Shown here: positions 4,161-28,457 of the stretch, piece by piece | Layout: each line of letters opens with the position of its first letter | Position numbering within the stretch: position 1 is the first letter of the stretch | NCBI GenBank assembly: GCA_015134435.1 | Contig: CP043989.1 | Location: 1-32,000 of the forward strand | DNA: 32,000 bases | From: Candidatus Saccharimonadota bacterium | GTDB lineage: Bacteria; Pseudomonadota; Gammaproteobacteria; Enterobacterales; Enterobacteriaceae | Reading direction: 5' to 3' | The notes under the pieces: model-generated | Database searches by the model: none | What the model was told of the DNA's origin: nothing | Seen by the model: only the letters and a program-made list of their open reading frames with translations | Translations under genes and position numbers: made by a program

Positions 4161-4510
4161 GGGGTTGTTTTGGATTTGACAAAATATACAAATTTATTTG
4201 ATCATGTCGAGGAAACGGTTGGCCGCGTTAAAAACCGTAAAAAATAATTGCAAATAATTACAATTATGCTTTAGCAGCTTAAAAACTGAAAAGCCATTTT
4301 TTATATTATATTTATCTCTTTAAATTTATAAAAAATGTTATATTAAAAGAGAAATATTATAAAATGTCTATGTTTATAATATAATTATTTATAGATAAAC
4401 TTAATTATTTATTTTTTTTATTTTAAATAATTAAAAAATAAAATAAAATAAACATGTAATTTCAATAAAATTAGTTATTTTGGACGCGGGTTCGAATCCC
4501 GCCAACTCCA
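4161..4510 (+). ncRNA. ssrA: tmRNA (SsrA)
   Basis: The 5' end is GGGGTTGTTTTGGATTTGAC. The 3' end is GGACGCGGGTTCGAATCCCGCCAACTCCA. The acceptor stem has a G3-U70 pair (alanine identity). The tag ORF GCA AAT AAT TAC AAT TAT GCT TTA GCA GCT TAA (4250-4282) encodes ANNYNYALAA. No CCA is encoded. Confidence 0.93.
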
Positions 4511-4514
4511 TAAA

Positions 4515-5924: not shown

Positions 5925-8039
5925 TTATTTATTTTTTATATAATTATTTTCAATACTTAATTTTATTTTTCCATAAATATCTATATTTATAACTTTAACA
6001 TGTATATATTGACCAACTTTAAAATAATTAAAAATATTATTAATTTTATTAATATTATATATTTTAGATATATGAACTAAACCTTCTTTTTTTCCTAAAA
6101 TATTAACAAATAATCCAAAATTTACTATTTTAATAATTTTAGCTAAATATATATAACCTTTTTTAATTATACATATAATTTTTTTTATATCATTTATAGT
6201 ATTAATTGCATTATTTTTATTATTAGATATTATATTAATTAATCCATTATCATTAACTTCAATAAAACAATTATTTTTTTGAGTAAGAGACTTTATTACA
6301 GAACCACCTTTACCAATAACATCTTTAATTTTATTTATATCAATTTTAAATTTATATATTTTAGGAGAATAAGGTGATAAATAAGGTCTAAATGATTTAA
6401 TTTTAGATTCCATTTTATTTAAAATATATAATCTAGAATTATTAGATTTTTTTAAACATTCTTGAATATCATTTATATTAATTCCTTTAATTTTCATATC
6501 CATTTGTAATGCAGTTATACCTTTATTAGTTCCAATTATTTTAAAATCCATATCCCCTAATTTATCTTCATCTCCAATTATATCTGAAAGAATAAATTTT
6601 TTATTATTAGTTTTAATTAAACCCATTGCTATACCAGCAACATGTTTTTTAATAGGAACGCCAGCATCCATTAATGCTAAAGAAGCACCACATACAGAAG
6701 CCATAGAAGAAGATCCATTAGATTCCATAATATCAGATACTATACGTATAGTATAAGGAAATTTTTTTATATTAGGTAATATTGGAATAATACCTTTTTT
6801 AGCTAAATAACCATGACCTATTTCTCTACGTTTAGGAACCCCTAAATTACCTATTTCACCTACAGAATATGGAGGAAAATTATAATGAAAAATAAAATTA
6901 TCTATCCTTTCACCTAAAAATATATCATCAAAACTTTGAGCATCTTTAGAAGTACCTAAAGTAATAGTAACTAAAGCTTGAGTTTCTCCTCTAGTAAAAA
7001 GAGAAGAACCATGAACTCTTTTAGGTAAAAAACCAATTTTAATATTTATATCACGAATATCATTTTCTTTTCTACCATCTATACGAGTTCCAAAATTAAT
7101 TAAATTATTTATAAATATTTCTTTTTCAATTTCATTTATTTTATTAATTACTAAATATTCATAAAAATTTTCATTATTATTATTTAATTTTAATAATAAA
7201 TTATCTTTAATTTTATTTAATGATTTTATTCTTTTTATTTTATTATATTTTTTTGAATATATTAATTTTATTTTATCTATACAATAATCATATATATAAT
7301 TATATATATTTTTAGAAAGAAATTTATTAAAATAATTATTTTTAATAAAATTATTTTTTTTACATATATAATAAAATTTATTAATATTATTTATTAATTT
7401 ATTAAAATTATCAAAAGCAAAATTTATACCATCTATTATATATTTTTCATTTAAATTTTTACAAGAACAATCTATCATAAATATATCATTATTATTTCCA
7501 ACAACTATTAAATTTAATTTACTTATAATAATTTCATTTAAAGTAGGATTTAATATATATTTATGATTTATATAACCAACTCTTGCTACTCCTAAAGATT
7601 CAATATTATTTATACCAGATATTTTTAAAACTGCAAAAACTGCTATAATAGAAATTATATCTGTACTAATTTGAGGATTAACAGAAATAACATTTATAAC
7701 TATTTGTATATTATTAAAAAAATTTTTATCAAATAATGGACGTATAGATCTATCAATTAATCTAGAAATAATTATTTCATTATCACTAGATCTCACTTCC
7801 CTTCTAAAAAAACTTCCTGGTATTTTACCTATAGAATAAAATTTTTCTTGATAATTTACAGTTAAAGGTAAAAAATTTTGATCATTTTTAATTTCATCAT
7901 TACATACTAAAGTTACAATTACTACTGTATCATCCATATTAGCTATAATTGAAGAAGTACATTGACGAGCTATATAACCATTTTCTAATTTAATTACATT
8001 TTTTCCATAATTAAATTTTAAAATATTTTTTTTAAACAA
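5925..8039 (-). CDS. pnp: Polynucleotide phosphorylase
   Basis: A 704-aa intact ORF with RNase PH domains, KH (GKGGSVIK) and a C-terminal S1 domain. The start codon is TTG (revcomp of 8037-8039), preceded by AAAGGA. As I recall, E. coli pnp also starts with UUG. Confidence 0.95.
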   Translation of the reverse strand: MFKKNILKFNYGKNVIKLENGYIARQCTSSIIANMDDTVVIVTLVCNDEIKNDQNFLPLTVNYQEKFYSIGKIPGSFFRREVRSSDNEIIISRLIDRSIRPLFDKNFFNNIQIVINVISVNPQISTDIISIIAVFAVLKISGINNIESLGVARVGYINHKYILNPTLNEIIISKLNLIVVGNNNDIFMIDCSCKNLNEKYIIDGINFAFDNFNKLINNINKFYYICKKNNFIKNNYFNKFLSKNIYNYIYDYCIDKIKLIYSKKYNKIKRIKSLNKIKDNLLLKLNNNNENFYEYLVINKINEIEKEIFINNLINFGTRIDGRKENDIRDINIKIGFLPKRVHGSSLFTRGETQALVTITLGTSKDAQSFDDIFLGERIDNFIFHYNFPPYSVGEIGNLGVPKRREIGHGYLAKKGIIPILPNIKKFPYTIRIVSDIMESNGSSSMASVCGASLALMDAGVPIKKHVAGIAMGLIKTNNKKFILSDIIGDEDKLGDMDFKIIGTNKGITALQMDMKIKGININDIQECLKKSNNSRLYILNKMESKIKSFRPYLSPYSPKIYKFKIDINKIKDVIGKGGSVIKSLTQKNNCFIEVNDNGLINIISNNKNNAINTINDIKKIICIIKKGYIYLAKIIKIVNFGLFVNILGKKEGLVHISKIYNINKINNIFNYFKVGQYIHVKVINIDIYGKIKLSIENNYIKNK

Positions 8040-8477: not shown

Positions 8478-10151
<1,674 letters not shown>

Positions 10152-14817: not shown

Positions 14818-14888
14818 GCGAGTATTTTATAAAGGTATTATTTTAGCCTTCCAAGCTAAAGATACGGGTTCAAATCCCGTTACTCGCT
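14818..14888 (+). tRNA. tRNA-Gly (UCC)
   Basis: In GCGAGTA...TTAGC CTTCCAA GCTAA AGAT ACGGG TTCAAAT CCCGT TACTCGC T, the D-arm is all A/T. The Thr-Tyr-Gly order resembles the E. coli thrU-tyrU-glyT cluster. Confidence 0.8.
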
Positions 14889-17438
14889 TTTAAAAAATAT
14901 ATAAATATTATTTATAATAATAATTGGTTTTATATTTTTATATATATATAAAAAATTTTTTTTATTAAAATAAAAAATATTATTTATATTTATTATTTTA
15001 AATAAATATTTATTTTTTATTAAAATATTTTTATAATTTAAATTTAAATTTAAAATAAATAATATATTTATTTTTTTTATTTTTTTTATTTTTATGAAAT
15101 TTCTTAAAAAACATATAATTTTTTTAAATATTTTAAATATTGAATTATAAATTTTAAAATTATTTAATTTATATTTTATATTTGGAAATTTTTTATTTAA
15201 AATTGAATTTTTATAATTTTTTTTTCATATATATTCTGTAATGAATGGTGTTATAATATGTGATATTTTTAAAAAATTATTAATTATATATTTTAAAAAT
15301 AATTTATTATGTTTATTTATTAATTTTAATTTATTAGATTCAATATATCAATCACAAAAATAATTTTTTAAAAATTTAAAAATATTTTTACATAATAAAT
15401 TAAATTTAAATAATTTTATATTTTTTTTAAAATTAATAATTAATTTATTAAATTTATATAATATTCATTTTTCTATTAAAAATAATTTATTTATATTTAT
15501 TTTTTTTTTTATATAATTTTTATTTATTTTTATTATTTTAAATATATATATACATATATTTCATAATTTATTACAATAATTATAAGAATGTATTAATTTA
15601 TTATTATTAAAATTTATTTTTAATGTAGATGTGTATATTGATGTTAAATAAAATCTTATTGTATCAATACGATTAGGTTTTATACCTTTTGGAAAAAATT
15701 TTTTTGTATTTTTAATAATTTTATTTATTTTTTTATTTTTAATTAAATTTTTTATTCTTTTTTTTATTAATTTTTTTAATGATATTCCATATATTAAATC
15801 TTTTATTTCTATTACATTTCCTAAAGATTTAGACATTTTTTTTCCATTTTCATCTCTTATTAAACCAGTTATAAAAATTTTTTTAAAAGGTATTTGAGGT
15901 ATATTATTTTTTTTTATTAAATATAATGACATTATAATCATTTTACAAATTCAAAAAAAAATAATATCAAAACCACTTACTATTAAATTTAATGGATAAA
16001 ATTTATTTAATATATTTTTTTTATTTGGTCAACCTAATAAAGTAAAACTTCATAATGAAGAAGAAAATCATGTATCTAAAATATTTTTGTCTTGTTTTAA
16101 TTTTTCATTTTTTATATTAGGATATTTTTTTTTTATATAATTTACATTATATCCAGCATATTGATTTTTTTTTTTATCATATCATATAGGTATTCTATGT
16201 CCTCAATATATTTGTCTAGATATACATCAATCTTTTGTATTATTTATTCAATATAAAAATAATTTTTTATATTTTTTTGGAAATATTAATATTTTTTCAT
16301 TTTTTATATATTTTATAGCTTTTTTAGATAAAATAGATGTTTTTATATATCATTGATTAGTTAATATAGGTAAAATAATACAATTTGTTTTATTACTATA
16401 TTTTATTTTTGAATATTTATTTTTTATTTTTTTAATAATTTTTTTTTTTTTTAAAAAATTAATTATATTTTTTCTTACTATTAAATAATATTTTTTTTTG
16501 ATTCATTTTAAATTTTTAAATTTTAAATATTTTGTTTTTTTTTTTTTATAATTATATAATTTTATTTTTTTTATAAAACCGTTTTTATTAAATATATCAA
16601 TTATATTTAATTTATTTTTTTTTACAAAATTTAAATCTTTATTATAATAATTTGGTAATATTTTTATATTTTTATTTTTATTAATTTTTTTATTAAATAT
16701 TAATTTTATTAATTTATTTGTAATTGGATTTATTACAAATTTATTTTTATATTTAATATTATTAATAATTATAGCTGTAATACTTAATATTTTTTCTGGT
16801 TTAGTTGTTTTTAATATTATATATTTATTTTTTTTAAAAATTTTAAATTTAATAAAATAATTTTTTACAATTTTTTTTTTAATATTAATTTCTAGATTAG
16901 ATAATGAATTTTTTATTTTTTTATCTCAATTAATTATTTTTTTTTTTTTATATATTAAATTGTTATTATATAATTTTATAAAAGCTTTTTTTACAGAATA
17001 ATTAAAATTTTTATCTAAAGAAAAATATGTTTTTTTTCAAAATATCGAACTACCTATTAATTCTGTTTGTTTATTTATTTTTTTTTCATATTTTTTTTTT
17101 CATTTTCATAATTCTTTTATTATATTTTTTTTTGATATATTTATATTTTTTTTTTTTAAATAATTTTCTACTAAAATTTGAGTTATTATTCCTGCATGAT
17201 CTGTACCCATTAATCATAATATATTTTTATTTTTCATTTTATTATATCTTACTATTATATCTATAATAGTTTGTTGAAATGCATGTCCTATATGTAAATT
17301 ACCTGTAATATTAGGAGGAGGCATAATAATAGAAAAATTTTTTTTATTATTTTTATTTTTTGGATTAAAGAATCCTTTATTTTTTCAATAATTATATATT
17401 TTTTTTTCTTTATTAAATAAATTATATTTTTTATTCAT
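14880..17438 (-). CDS. valS: Valyl-tRNA synthetase; needs TGA=Trp (about 20 in-frame TGAs)
   Basis: I translated the full frame by hand from ATG 17438 to TAA 14880-82 (852 codons) with no TAA/TAG. Motifs seen: [101 protein letters not shown] and [12 protein letters not shown]. It lacks the C-terminal coiled coil of the E. coli enzyme. The track shows only the fragment 15561..15941. Confidence 0.93.
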
Positions 17439-18501: not shown

Positions 18502-18574
18502 CAGGGGTAGAAGGATTTGAACCCTAACCTATGATTTTGGAGACCATCGTTCTACCAGATTAAACTATACCCCC
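18502..18574 (-). tRNA. trpT: tRNA-Trp (CCA anticodon) with U11-A24 D-stem pair
   Basis: Manual cloverleaf: GGGGGTA TA GTTT AATCTGGTA GAAC G ATGGT CTCCAAA ATCAT AGGT TAGGG TTCAAAT CCTTC TACCCCT G. The discriminator is G73, as in E. coli tRNA-Trp, and the sequence is colinear with it. The T-stem has one mismatch and one G-U pair. Confidence 0.8.
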
Positions 18575-18581
18575 TTTTTTA

Positions 18582-18653
18582 TAGGTCTAAGAAGATTTGA
18601 ACTTCTGACCTCACCCTTATCAGGGGTGTGCTCTACCACTGAGCTATAGACCT
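18582..18653 (-). tRNA. tRNA-Ile (GAU)
   Basis: Manual cloverleaf: AGGTCTA TA GCTC AGTGGTA GAGC A CACCC CTGATAA GGGTG AGGTC AGAAG TTCAAAT CTTCT TAGACCT A. It is not embedded in an rRNA operon here. Confidence 0.88.
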
Positions 18654-19147: not shown

Positions 19148-20848
19148 ATGAGAACAAAAAAATATTTTTTATTTACAAAAAAAGATAATTTAAAAAAAGA
19201 TAAAAATAATATATGTAATTTAATGATTAAAGGAGGTTTAATAAGAAAATTATCTTCTGGAATATATATATGATTACCTAATGGTTTAAAAATTATTAAT
19301 AATATAAATAAAATTATAAAAAAATATATGAATAAATTAAATGGTATAGAATTATATATTCCTATATTACAAAATTCTATATTTTTAAAAAAAAGTAATA
19401 GATATAATTTATATGGTAATGAATTATTTAAATTATATAATAGAAATAATAAAATTTTTATTTTATCACCTACAAATGAAGAAATAATTACTAATATAAT
19501 TTGTAATGAAGTAAAAAATAATTTTTATCCTAAATTTTATTATCAAATACAAAATAAATTTAGAGATGAAATTAGATCTAGATATGGAATTTTAAGATCT
19601 AAAGAATTTATAATGAAAGAAGCTTATTCTTTTCATGATTCTATAGAATGTTTAAATAAATTTTATAAAAATATATTATTAATATATAAAAATATATTTT
19701 ATGATATAGGTTTAGATTTTTTTTGTAAAAAAGCTAAATGTGGTAATATAGGTGGTAAATTATCTCATGAATTTCATACAATTTCTTTTTATGGAGAAAA
19801 TAAAATTTATTATTATAAGTATATTAATAAAATTTTAAATTTTAATTATTTAAATAATAAAAATAATAAAAAATTTTTTAGAAGAATTAAATTAGTAAAT
19901 ATTTCAAAATATTTATTAAAATTTAATTTTAAAAAAATTATAAATGTGAATTTTTTTGTTAAAACAATTTTAATTAAAATATATACAAAAAAAAATAAAT
20001 CATTTATGTTTATATTAATACCATATAAAAAAGAAATAGATTTCAATAAAATATATAAAATTTTTCCTTATATTATTAATATAAAAATTGTAAAAAAAAA
20101 AAAAATATTAAAAAAATTTAATATAAATAATATTTATTTTTTATCTACATTTGGATACTTTTATCAAATTATAGCTGATTTTTCATTATTATATTGAAAA
20201 AATTTTATATTTGGTTCTAATATTAAAAATAGTATTTATTATAATGTAAATTTTTTTAGAGATATAAATGTTAGTGGTTTTTTTAATATATGTAAAAATG
20301 TTTTTATATTTATTAAAAAAAAAAAAAAAATAAAAAAATTTTTTAAATATAAAACTATAGAATTAGCTCATACTTTTAAATTAATGAATTATTATTCTAA
20401 TATTTTTATTAAAAAAAATAAATTAAATAATAAAAAAATATATATGGGTTGTTATGGAATTGGAATTACTAGATTAATTTTTTCTATAATAGAAAAATAT
20501 AAAAATAAAAATAATATTATTTTACCAATTTCTATATCTCATTTTAAAATTGGTATTTTACCAATTAATATGTATAATAATATTAAAGTTTATAATATGT
20601 CATTAAAAATTTATAATTTTTTATTATTTAAAAAAATTAGTGTTTTATTAGATGATAGAAAATTATATATGGGTGAAATGTTAAATGATTTTTATGTCAT
20701 GGGAATACCTAATATTTTAATAATTAGTGATAAAATGTTATCTTTAAATTTATTGGAATTTAAAGATAGATTAAATAATAATATTAAATATATTAATAAA
20801 AATAATATATTTATTTTTTTGGAAAATAAATATAATAAAATTATTTAG
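19148..20848 (+). CDS. proS: Prolyl-tRNA synthetase; needs TGA=Trp
   Basis: MRTKKYFLFT...GLIRKLSSGIYIWLPNG has its W encoded by TGA (E. coli SGLYTWLPTG). Other motifs are FYYQIQNKFRDEIRSRYGILRSKEFIMKEAYSFH, ELAHTFKL and MGCYGIGITR. The track fragments 19328..20197 and 20384..20848 are in the same frame, joined across TGA 20195-97. TAG lies at 20846-48. Confidence 0.92.
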
Positions 20849-27245: not shown

Positions 27246-28457
27246 ATGAAAATTTTTCTTGTTGGAGGAGCGGTACGTGATAAATTATTAGGATTAAATA
27301 TACGTGATAAAGATTGAGTTATTGTTGGTGGTACTTATAAAAAAATGATAAATTTAGGTTTTATACCTATTGGTAATGATTTTCCTGTATTTTTACATCC
27401 TATTACTTATGAAGAATATGCTTTAGCACGTACTGAAAAAAAAATTAATAAAGGTTATAAAGGTTTTTTATGTAATTTTTCAAAAAATATAACTTTAAAA
27501 GAAGATTTATATAGAAGAGATTTAACTATAAATGCTATAGCTTTAGATAAAAAAGGTATATATTATGATTTTTTTGGTGGTATAAATGATATTAAAAATA
27601 GAATTATTAGACATGTTTCTTATCATTTTTCTGAAGATCCTTTAAGGGTTTTAAGAATAATTAAAATTTATTCTTTTTATTATAAATTTGGTTTTTATAT
27701 TCATAAAAAAACTTTATTATTAATTAAAAAAATTGTTATTTCTGGTGAACTTTTATATTTAAAATCTGAAAGAATATGATTAGAAACTAAAAAAGTAATT
27801 AATAAATGTAATTTATATATTTATTTTAATTTATTAAATAAATTAAATATAAATAATATTATTTATCCTGAAATTTTATTAATTTTTAATAATAAAAAAA
27901 TAAAATATTATTTTAAATTTATTTTTAATAATAAAAATTTTTATAAATTAGGTTTAAATTTAAATTTATTATGTTTATTTATTTTTTTTAATCATTCAAT
28001 ATTATCGAAAAAATATTTTTGTAATAAAGATTATACTTTAAATATAGTTTATTCTTTTTGTCAAAGATTAAAATTACCTAAAAAAAATTATATTTTATTT
28101 AAATATATATATTTTTTTTTAAAAAAAAATTTTTTTTTTAATAATAAAATATTATCTATTTTTATATTAAATTTATTTAATAAAATTAATATTTGACGTA
28201 ATAAATACATTATTAATTATATTTTTAAATTTATTAAAATAATAAATTTATTACCTTTAAAGAATAAAATATTTATTTTTTTAAAAAAATATTTTTTTAA
28301 AATATATTATATTATTAATAATATAAAAAATAAATATTTAATTAAATTAGGTTATTATGGTATTAATATAAGTAAAAAAATAAAATTTTTTAGATATAAA
28401 AAAATTTATTATTTTTTAAAAAAAGAAAATTTAAATTTTTTATATAAAAAAAATTAA
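27246..28457 (+). CDS. cca: CCA-adding tRNA nucleotidyltransferase; needs TGA=Trp
   Basis: [28 protein letters not shown] has its W encoded by TGA 27315-17 (E. coli DRDWVVVG). DFPVFLHPITYEEYALARTEKK and RRDLTINA are also present. TGAs at 27777-79 and about 28195 are read through. TAA lies at 28455-57. Confidence 0.9.

Follow-up and report, generated by a model that had tools for sequence, protein, structure and literature searches.

The stretch of DNA analysed here (32 kb in length, below called the window) raises the question of how a genome that writes tryptophan as UGA can translate it with a tRNA-Trp whose anticodon is still CCA. The D-stem of this tRNA carries a U11-A24 pair, the same pair as in the Hirsh UGA suppressor of Escherichia coli, and a preliminary description of the sequence had proposed that UGG and UGA are both decoded through this D-arm effect. 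The question is therefore whether A24 caused the recoding, or whether it was there before UGA changed its meaning.

The tRNA-Trp gene and the genetic code of the window

The gene and its parts are located as follows.

18502 to 18574, minus strand: tRNA-Trp, anticodon CCA, 73 nt (ARAGORN and Rfam RF00005)
18562 to 18565, minus strand: 5′ strand of the D-stem, G10-U11-U12-U13, with U11 at 18564
18549 to 18552, minus strand: 3′ strand of the D-stem, G22-A23-A24-C25, with A24 at 18550
18538 to 18540, minus strand: anticodon C34-C35-A36 (the plus strand reads TGG)
18531 to 18547, minus strand: anticodon arm, a five-pair stem and the loop CUCCAAA with the A36-A37-A38 motif

From its 5′-end the gene reads GGGGGTA-TA-GTTT-AATCTGGTA-GAAC-G-, and continues after GAAC-G with ATGGT-CTCCAAA-ATCAT-AGGT-TAGGG-TTCAAAT-CCTTC-TACCCCT-G. 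Structure-aware models, together with the CCA anticodon and the discriminator G73 (read directly from the sequence), identify it as a bacterial tRNA-Trp. Rfam RF00005 matches 18502 to 18574 with 60.4 bits against a gathering score of 29 (E = 7e-11), while ARAGORN reports 12 tRNAs and a tmRNA in the window, with tRNA-Trp(CCA) as the sole Trp tRNA; the Rfam tRNA model found no tRNAs in the window beyond the ARAGORN set. The CCA anticodon and G73 are reportedly the TrpRS identity elements in E. coli. A minimum free energy fold of this tRNA with ViennaRNA gave no cloverleaf; such folds are usual with AT-rich tRNAs, and the covariance model is given preference here. The D-stem GUUU/GAAC is made of G10-C25, U11-A24, U12-A23 and U13·G22, and the anticodon stem of A27-U43, U28-A42, G29-C41, G30·U40 and U31-A39. 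The 3′ CCA is not encoded. The acceptor stem opens with G1·U72, where most relatives and E. coli have A1-U72, and the D-loop has 9 nt, the variable loop 4 nt and the T-stem a U49×C65 mismatch; all four features recur in the tRNA-Trp of the Stammera genome CP144834. The preliminary description had placed a tRNA-Trp(CCA) at these positions, with the D-stem GTTT/GAAC, the pair U11-A24 and the anticodon loop CTCCAAA. Both programs and the sequence itself agree with it, and assign the gene to the minus strand.

The window uses genetic code 4, with UGA read as Trp, as that description had presumed. Its 17 long ORFs contain 56 in-frame TGA codons and no genuine TGG, and all 17 stop at TAA or TAG. In seven genes, 41 of the 46 TGA codons align to a TGG-Trp of a standard-code relative. 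ORFs of at least 100 aa, taken stop to stop, cover 11,265 aa under table 4 versus 7,816 aa under table 11. The GC content is 14%, and codons ending in G make up 1.55% of the two-fold families that end in a purine; at that usage, finding no TGG among 56 Trp codons has P = 0.42, and selection for TGG is not detectable in the window genes. The Trp content has been kept (46 versus 49 codons in the seven-gene comparison, with no depletion), and no bias towards a 3′-A after TGA is seen in the window genes (p = 0.42). Since the lack of TGG fits mutation bias, Trp is undepleted and no 3′-A context is favored, UGA acts as an ordinary sense codon, and no cost of its use is visible. The same skew runs through other codons of the window genes, with AAG at 16 versus AAA at 1315 and CAG at 0 versus CAA at 97, and with C-ending codons nearly absent from the four-fold families.

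Several neighboring genes bear on the decoding of UGA or on the maturation of the tRNA.

18582 to 18653, minus strand: tRNA-Ile(GAU), 7 nt upstream of tRNA-Trp on the same strand (ARAGORN)
14883 to 17438, minus strand: ValRS gene with 20 in-frame TGA codons, 19 of which are TGG-Trp in the Stammera genome CP144777
25361 to 26977, plus strand: MetRS gene with 10 in-frame TGA codons, all 10 of which are TGG-Trp in CP144777
20844 to 22130, minus strand: tilS, tRNA(Ile)-lysidine synthetase (NCBIfam TIGR02432 and TIGR02433)
27246 to 28454, plus strand: CCA-adding tRNA nucleotidyltransferase (NCBIfam NF009813, E = 1e-98, under the full-length cut-off)

The tRNA-Ile(GAU) and tRNA-Trp genes are probably co-transcribed, and the pair is syntenic in every Stammera locus examined. 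TilS is the only C34-modifying enzyme seen within the window and is encoded 2.3 kb from tRNA-Trp; it scores 183 bits with TIGR02432 (cut-off 93.6) and 26.1 bits with TIGR02433 (cut-off 20.2). The CCA-adding nucleotidyltransferase, whose syntenic gene in relatives matches PF01743, is needed because the tRNA genes of the window lack an encoded CCA. The genes lie very close together: 2 nt are shared by the convergent ORFs of ProRS and TilS (20844 to 20845), and the 3′-end of tRNA-Gly(UCC) (14818 to 14888) overlaps the end of the convergent ValRS ORF (14883) by a few bases. The tmRNA (4161 to 4513; Rfam, 128 bits) lies directly upstream of tRNA-Val(UAC), adjoins smpB and encodes the tag ANNYNYALAA, while the tags of relatives are ANNNNYALAA and ENTFALAA. 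An IF-2 ORF cut by the window edge (1 to 130) opens with about five tandem copies of the 8-residue unit NIFNKNKK, in 24-nt repeats.

By sequence comparison, the window can be assigned to the lineage of Candidatus Stammera capleta, the Enterobacterales gut symbiont of tortoise beetles. Its GroEL is 86–94% identical and its ProRS 44–76% identical to Stammera proteins on contigs of 240–326 kb, and the next closest GroEL proteins after those of Stammera are from reed-beetle (Donacia) symbionts, Dasytiphilus and Buchnera. The gene order ValRS, EF-P, tRNA-Ile, tRNA-Trp, ProRS, TilS ... Rho, MetRS is conserved. An affinity to Zinderia insecticola, suggested by the GC content of 14%, can be set aside, as the Zinderia tRNA-Trp has C11-G24 and A27×C43 and the GroEL of the window is enterobacterial.

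That Stammera reads UGA as Trp with a CCA tRNA-Trp and no UCA tRNA is already published. Both Stammera and Zinderia are on record as symbionts that use code 4 while retaining a trnW with CCA (PMC10540940), a survey of 49 Stammera genomes lists tRNA-Trp(UCA) in 0 and prfB in 15 of them (PMC13462651, Table 2), and a second survey describes Stammera strains as “always” lacking tRNA-Trp(UCA) (gTranslate preprint). The sequence searched here gives the same picture: no tRNA with a UCA anticodon was found in the 32-kb window (ARAGORN, Rfam), in ∼200 kb of related Stammera loci, or among at least 120 listed matches to a tRNA-Trp pattern that allows Y at position 34. As neither this search nor the two published surveys contain a UCA tRNA, the CCA tRNA of the window has to read UGA. 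For this exact strain, the absence of prfB and of a UCA tRNA is extrapolated from other Stammera genomes and the literature.

Position 24 in relatives and other bacteria

We compared orthologous tRNA-Trp genes from 12 Stammera genomes, the window included, of about 49, with the code of each inferred from in-frame TGA and TGG codons. ProRS was the synteny anchor, NCBI Stammera records being linearised just upstream of groES. All 12 tRNAs have C34, A9 and U11-A24. Nine of the genomes, including the window, use code 4, with TGA/TGG counts from 14/2 to 80/6, and three use the standard code, with counts in stop-to-stop ORFs of 6/64 (CP144777), 4/62 (CP144774) and 2/63 (CP144787). The called genes of CP144777 contain 0 TGA and 57 TGG codons, and one gene has a TGA stop; none of the three standard-code Stammera, nor the Donacia symbiont described below, has an in-frame TGA in its called genes. 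The other code-4 Stammera keep a few TGG codons. The idea that the largest Stammera genomes are those with code 11 is wrong for CP144853, which has 326 kb and uses code 4.

Outgroup genes were located through the position of trpT upstream of the ilv operon in E. coli. The symbiont of Donacia thalassina (CP046188.1), which uses the standard code, has a tRNA-Trp(CCA) with the D-stem GUUU/GAAU and hence U11-A24. At the same locus prfB adjoins lysS; this gene is intact and, after a +1 frameshift, encodes RF2 with both the RF2-specific SPF motif and GGQ. The programmed frameshift site of this prfB (locus 275 to 1373) is CTT TAA T and not the classical CTT TGA C; the autoregulatory stop of prfB in this AT-rich, standard-code symbiont would be UAA. 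Annandia pinicola (CP045876.1, locus 5986 to 6058), with ∼20% GC and the standard code, has kept U11·G24. The E. coli tRNA-Trp has GUUC/GAGC with U11·G24, as the preliminary description had given it, and its exact sequence is annotated as tRNA-Trp in 5426 of 5426 genomes.

Further afield the A24 form is common. It occurs in 76 of 120 phage and prophage tRNA-Trp(CCA) genes with U11, and in named standard-code Clostridia and Helcococcus. A pattern scan of genome contigs returned mostly Clostridia, with 6 extra Stammera genomes among the matches listed; also among the matches listed, about 15 of 114 mostly clostridial genomes have U11-A24, and Anaerotignum has both the A24 and the G24 form.

With G24 in E. 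coli and Annandia and A24 in the Donacia symbiont and all 12 Stammera, a change from U11·G24 to U11-A24 is a plausible polarity. Of the 10 other tRNAs of the window that can be scored, 9 still have C11:G24, and the Trp pair thus appears to be a one-step fix of a U-G wobble and not part of a general erosion. Because Annandia keeps U11·G24, AT pressure does not always lead to A24, and selection may have favored A24 in the lineage of Stammera and the Donacia symbiont. The caveat, raised at the outset, that AT pressure alone turns G-U into A-U pairs is thus plausible for one G-to-A step, but does not extend to the D-stems of the other tRNAs or to Annandia.

The window tRNA-Trp is of the Hirsh type, in that it combines a CCA anticodon with A24 paired to U11, but A24 does not track the reading of UGA as Trp, since it is also found in standard-code Stammera, in the Donacia symbiont and in Clostridia. 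On this comparison, U11-A24 by itself cannot explain the code change. It is insufficient, because it was there before the recoding and is found in relatives that have RF2 and the standard code. It is also unnecessary, because Zinderia reads UGA with C11-G24 and the wild-type E. coli tRNA-Trp reads UGA once RF2 does not compete. In E. coli with an RF2 engineered not to read UGA, the wild-type tRNA-Trp, with G24, inserts Trp at ∼80% of UGA codons, and this depends on the A36-A37-A38/ms2i6A37 motif (PMC11903333). The A36-A37-A38 motif is kept in the window tRNA-Trp.

Reading UGA with a CCA anticodon: mechanism and alternatives

The reading that we prefer, to which we give a probability of roughly 0.6, is that RF2 loss was the switch, that the sole tRNA-Trp(CCA) reads UGA by a C34-A mismatch, and that A24 is an inherited background. 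The loss or inactivation of RF2 would have been the decisive event, as it removes the only competitor for UGA, and the near-cognate tRNA-Trp(CCA) would then read UGA by default while AT-biased mutation converts TGG to TGA. Essentially all Trp codons, all of them UGA, would be decoded with C34 mismatched to the A in the third position of the codon. U11-A24 would have been present in the clade before recoding, probably originating in one AT-favored G-to-A transition that turned the enterobacterial U11·G24 wobble into a Watson-Crick pair. It may still help kinetically, by analogy to the Hirsh suppressor, which stabilizes the bent A/T state: A24 may make the tRNA body more permissive, an effect to which the A36-A37-A38 motif and the weak anticodon stem, rich in A and U, may contribute. 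A24 would in that case be a background condition and not the switch.

Two points qualify this sequence of events. Of the Stammera genomes, five basal ones have the standard code, all of them with prfB (gTranslate preprint), while ∼10 code-4 Stammera assemblies reportedly still have it (PMC13462651; gTranslate preprint), and the loss of RF2 may therefore not be clean. In addition, a codon that is 100% mismatch-decoded without a visible cost is demanding, which leaves room for a C34 modification or for extra adaptations of the tRNA.

A more far-reaching interpretation, which we regard as tentative and on balance doubtful, gives A24 a larger part. A model of 2009 proposed that a distal mutation in the D-arm or anticodon arm lets tRNA-Trp(CCA) read UGA and that RF2 is lost afterwards (PMC2704378). 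The Stammera clade and the reed-beetle symbionts would preserve successive stages of this ambiguous-intermediate model, with A24 as a genuine pre-adaptation that made RF2 loss survivable. The first stage would be a permissive A24 tRNA-Trp(CCA) beside RF2 and the standard code, as in the Donacia symbiont and the three code-11 Stammera. In the second, RF2 function would be lost and TGG replaced wholesale by TGA; the anticodon would stay as it is, and its stem would loosen at the top (G×A, then G·U, then A-U at 27:43). The third stage, a change of the anticodon to UCA, would never have been reached. If A24 is such a pre-adaptation, the idea that codons are reassigned through an ambiguous intermediate would gain empirical support from the clade.

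It is unlikely that the G24A state of the D-arm was itself the key adaptation and the route by which the code change became fixed. The D-stem differs from that of E. coli exactly at position 24, plus C13U, and in E. coli, as the preliminary description had stated, G24A makes a UGA suppressor of a tRNA that still has the CCA anticodon. In this true suppressor, GTPase activation and accommodation are faster and the bent tRNA is stabilized. For a mitochondrial tRNA-Trp(CCA), too, an explanation by the Hirsh mutation has been put forward (PMC6551751). A24 is present in all code-4 Stammera sampled, the G24 of the AT-rich, standard-code Annandia indicates that it is not automatic, and the model of 2009 has a distal mutation as its first step. 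Against this stand A24 and CCA in three Stammera with 62–64 TGG versus 2–6 TGA codons, A24 in the RF2-bearing Donacia symbiont, its frequency in phages, standard-code Clostridia and Helcococcus, and its dispensability in Zinderia and in RF2-attenuated E. coli. Relatives that stop at UGA and carry the same pair had been named beforehand as what would weaken the D-arm proposal, and CP144777, CP144774, CP144787 and the Donacia symbiont are such relatives. Of that proposal, the part that survives is that the CCA tRNA must read UGA; the D-arm as its cause does not sit well with U11-A24 in UGA-stop relatives. Nor is the idea new, although it had been called an uncommon mechanistic route, having been put forward in 2009 (PMC2704378). 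In our literature search, no paper mentioned A24 for Stammera in particular.

An adaptive change in the anticodon stem, with 27:43 and/or 30:40 altered or weakened in a partly Blastocrithidia-like manner so that more C34-A wobble occurs, is less probable again. Mutations at 27:43 and 4-bp anticodon stems enhance C-A first-position wobble and UGA reading, and the 4-bp anticodon stem has been offered as the explanation for Zinderia, with Stammera listed as 5-bp and G24A and A9C treated as known confounders (2026 NAR survey). The stem UUGGU/ACCAA, with U27-A43 and G30-C40, is common to the four genomes with the standard code, those of three Stammera and of the Donacia symbiont, and each of the nine code-4 tRNA-Trp deviates from it, by A27-U43, G27·U43 (CP043975), G27×A43 (CP144850) and/or G30·U40, with A27-U43 in most. 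This suggests a series from G×A through G·U to A-U at 27:43. However, in a control with eight other tRNAs, tRNA-Pro and tRNA-Tyr are likewise uniform in code 11 and different in code 4, and 27:43 is also variable in tRNA-Lys, tRNA-His and tRNA-Tyr; since other tRNAs split in the same way, the stem signal would be largely shared ancestry and general drift. Independent stem changes cannot be counted, because the neighbor-joining tree of ProRS is unresolved at its base. The stem of the window tRNA-Trp has five base pairs and is fully paired, and with A27-U43 paired and A24 present it falls outside the class of 4-bp stems (unpaired 27:43, 7-nt loop, no A9C or G24A). In the code-4 genome CP144850.1 (locus 9262 to 9336), G27×A43 leaves a 4-bp anticodon stem, together with U11-A24; Stammera tRNA-Trp are thus not all 5-bp as in the 2026 NAR survey.

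It is improbable that C34 is changed after transcription, either by C-to-U editing or by a lysidine-like modification through the TilS encoded 2.3 kb away. Such a change would suit a genome with 100% UGA among its Trp codons and no detectable cost, tilS is retained in the window, and C-to-U editing of tRNA-Trp(CCA) takes place in kinetoplastid mitochondria (cited in PMC6551751). However, such a modification is not known from any bacterium, and tilS is needed in any case for AUA (743 ATA codons in the window genes) and is also present in standard-code Stammera strains. The few TGG codons kept by other code-4 Stammera are a further obstacle, as a tRNA with lysidine-34 would not read UGG. E. coli TilS, moreover, recognises acceptor-stem features of tRNA-Ile2. 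Finally, the scan covers 32 kb of a genome of ∼213 kb, but it is scarcely conceivable that a tRNA-Trp(UCA) outside the window or an imported host tRNA reads UGA while the CCA tRNA reads UGG only, given that the two surveys, the Stammera loci and the pattern matches contain no UCA tRNA, that a tRNA limited to UGG would find hardly any codons to decode with 0 TGG in the window, and that Stammera lives extracellularly.

The mechanistic question is how a bacterium that lacks a cognate UCA tRNA reads all of its Trp codons by a C-A mismatch. The 2026 NAR survey accounted for Zinderia and left the 5-bp Stammera unexplained, and the simplest answer, that the Hirsh mutation did it, is removed by A24 predating the recoding. 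The mixed-code Stammera clade is a natural experiment on UGA reassignment without a change of anticodon: the tRNA-Trp orthologues of sister code-11 and code-4 genomes differ at few positions, and the key features to compare are positions 24, 27:43 and 30:40 and the status of RF2.

Comparison with known systems

The closest known system is Stammera capleta itself (PMC10540940; PMC13462651; gTranslate preprint; PMC13092985), with which the window shares lineage, gene, synteny and the reading of UGA as Trp through CCA. The window tRNA-Trp is nearly identical to that of Stammera CP144834, while the chromosome, at ∼213 kb (212.7 kb), is smaller than the published Stammera range of 0.22–0.34 Mb.

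Among bacteria with the same D-stem pair, Bacillus and Clostridia also have a tRNA-Trp(CCA) with U11-A24, and a Bacillus-type gene in a viral sample has the identical GUUU/GAAC. Unlike the window, Bacillus and Clostridia with this pair keep RF2 and use UGA as a stop. UGA readthrough in B. subtilis is said to be low-level only.

Zinderia resembles the window in that a sole CCA tRNA-Trp reads UGA, with the change in the body of the tRNA and not in the anticodon. The two bodies differ, A27×C43 and C11-G24 in Zinderia standing against a 5-bp stem with A27-U43 in the window. Stammera CP144850 has a G27×A43 mismatch, comparable to the unpaired 27:43 of Zinderia, but combines it with A24.

The Hirsh suppressor, E. 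coli trpT with G24A, shares with the window tRNA the CCA anticodon, U11-A24 and the enterobacterial tRNA-Trp scaffold. The body of the window tRNA departs from it by C13U, an A/U-rich anticodon stem, G1·U72, a D-loop of 9 nt and a variable loop of 4 nt. The suppression by the Hirsh tRNA was measured in a laboratory mutant, with RF2 as competitor, whereas the A24 of Stammera is natural and common to its standard-code relatives.
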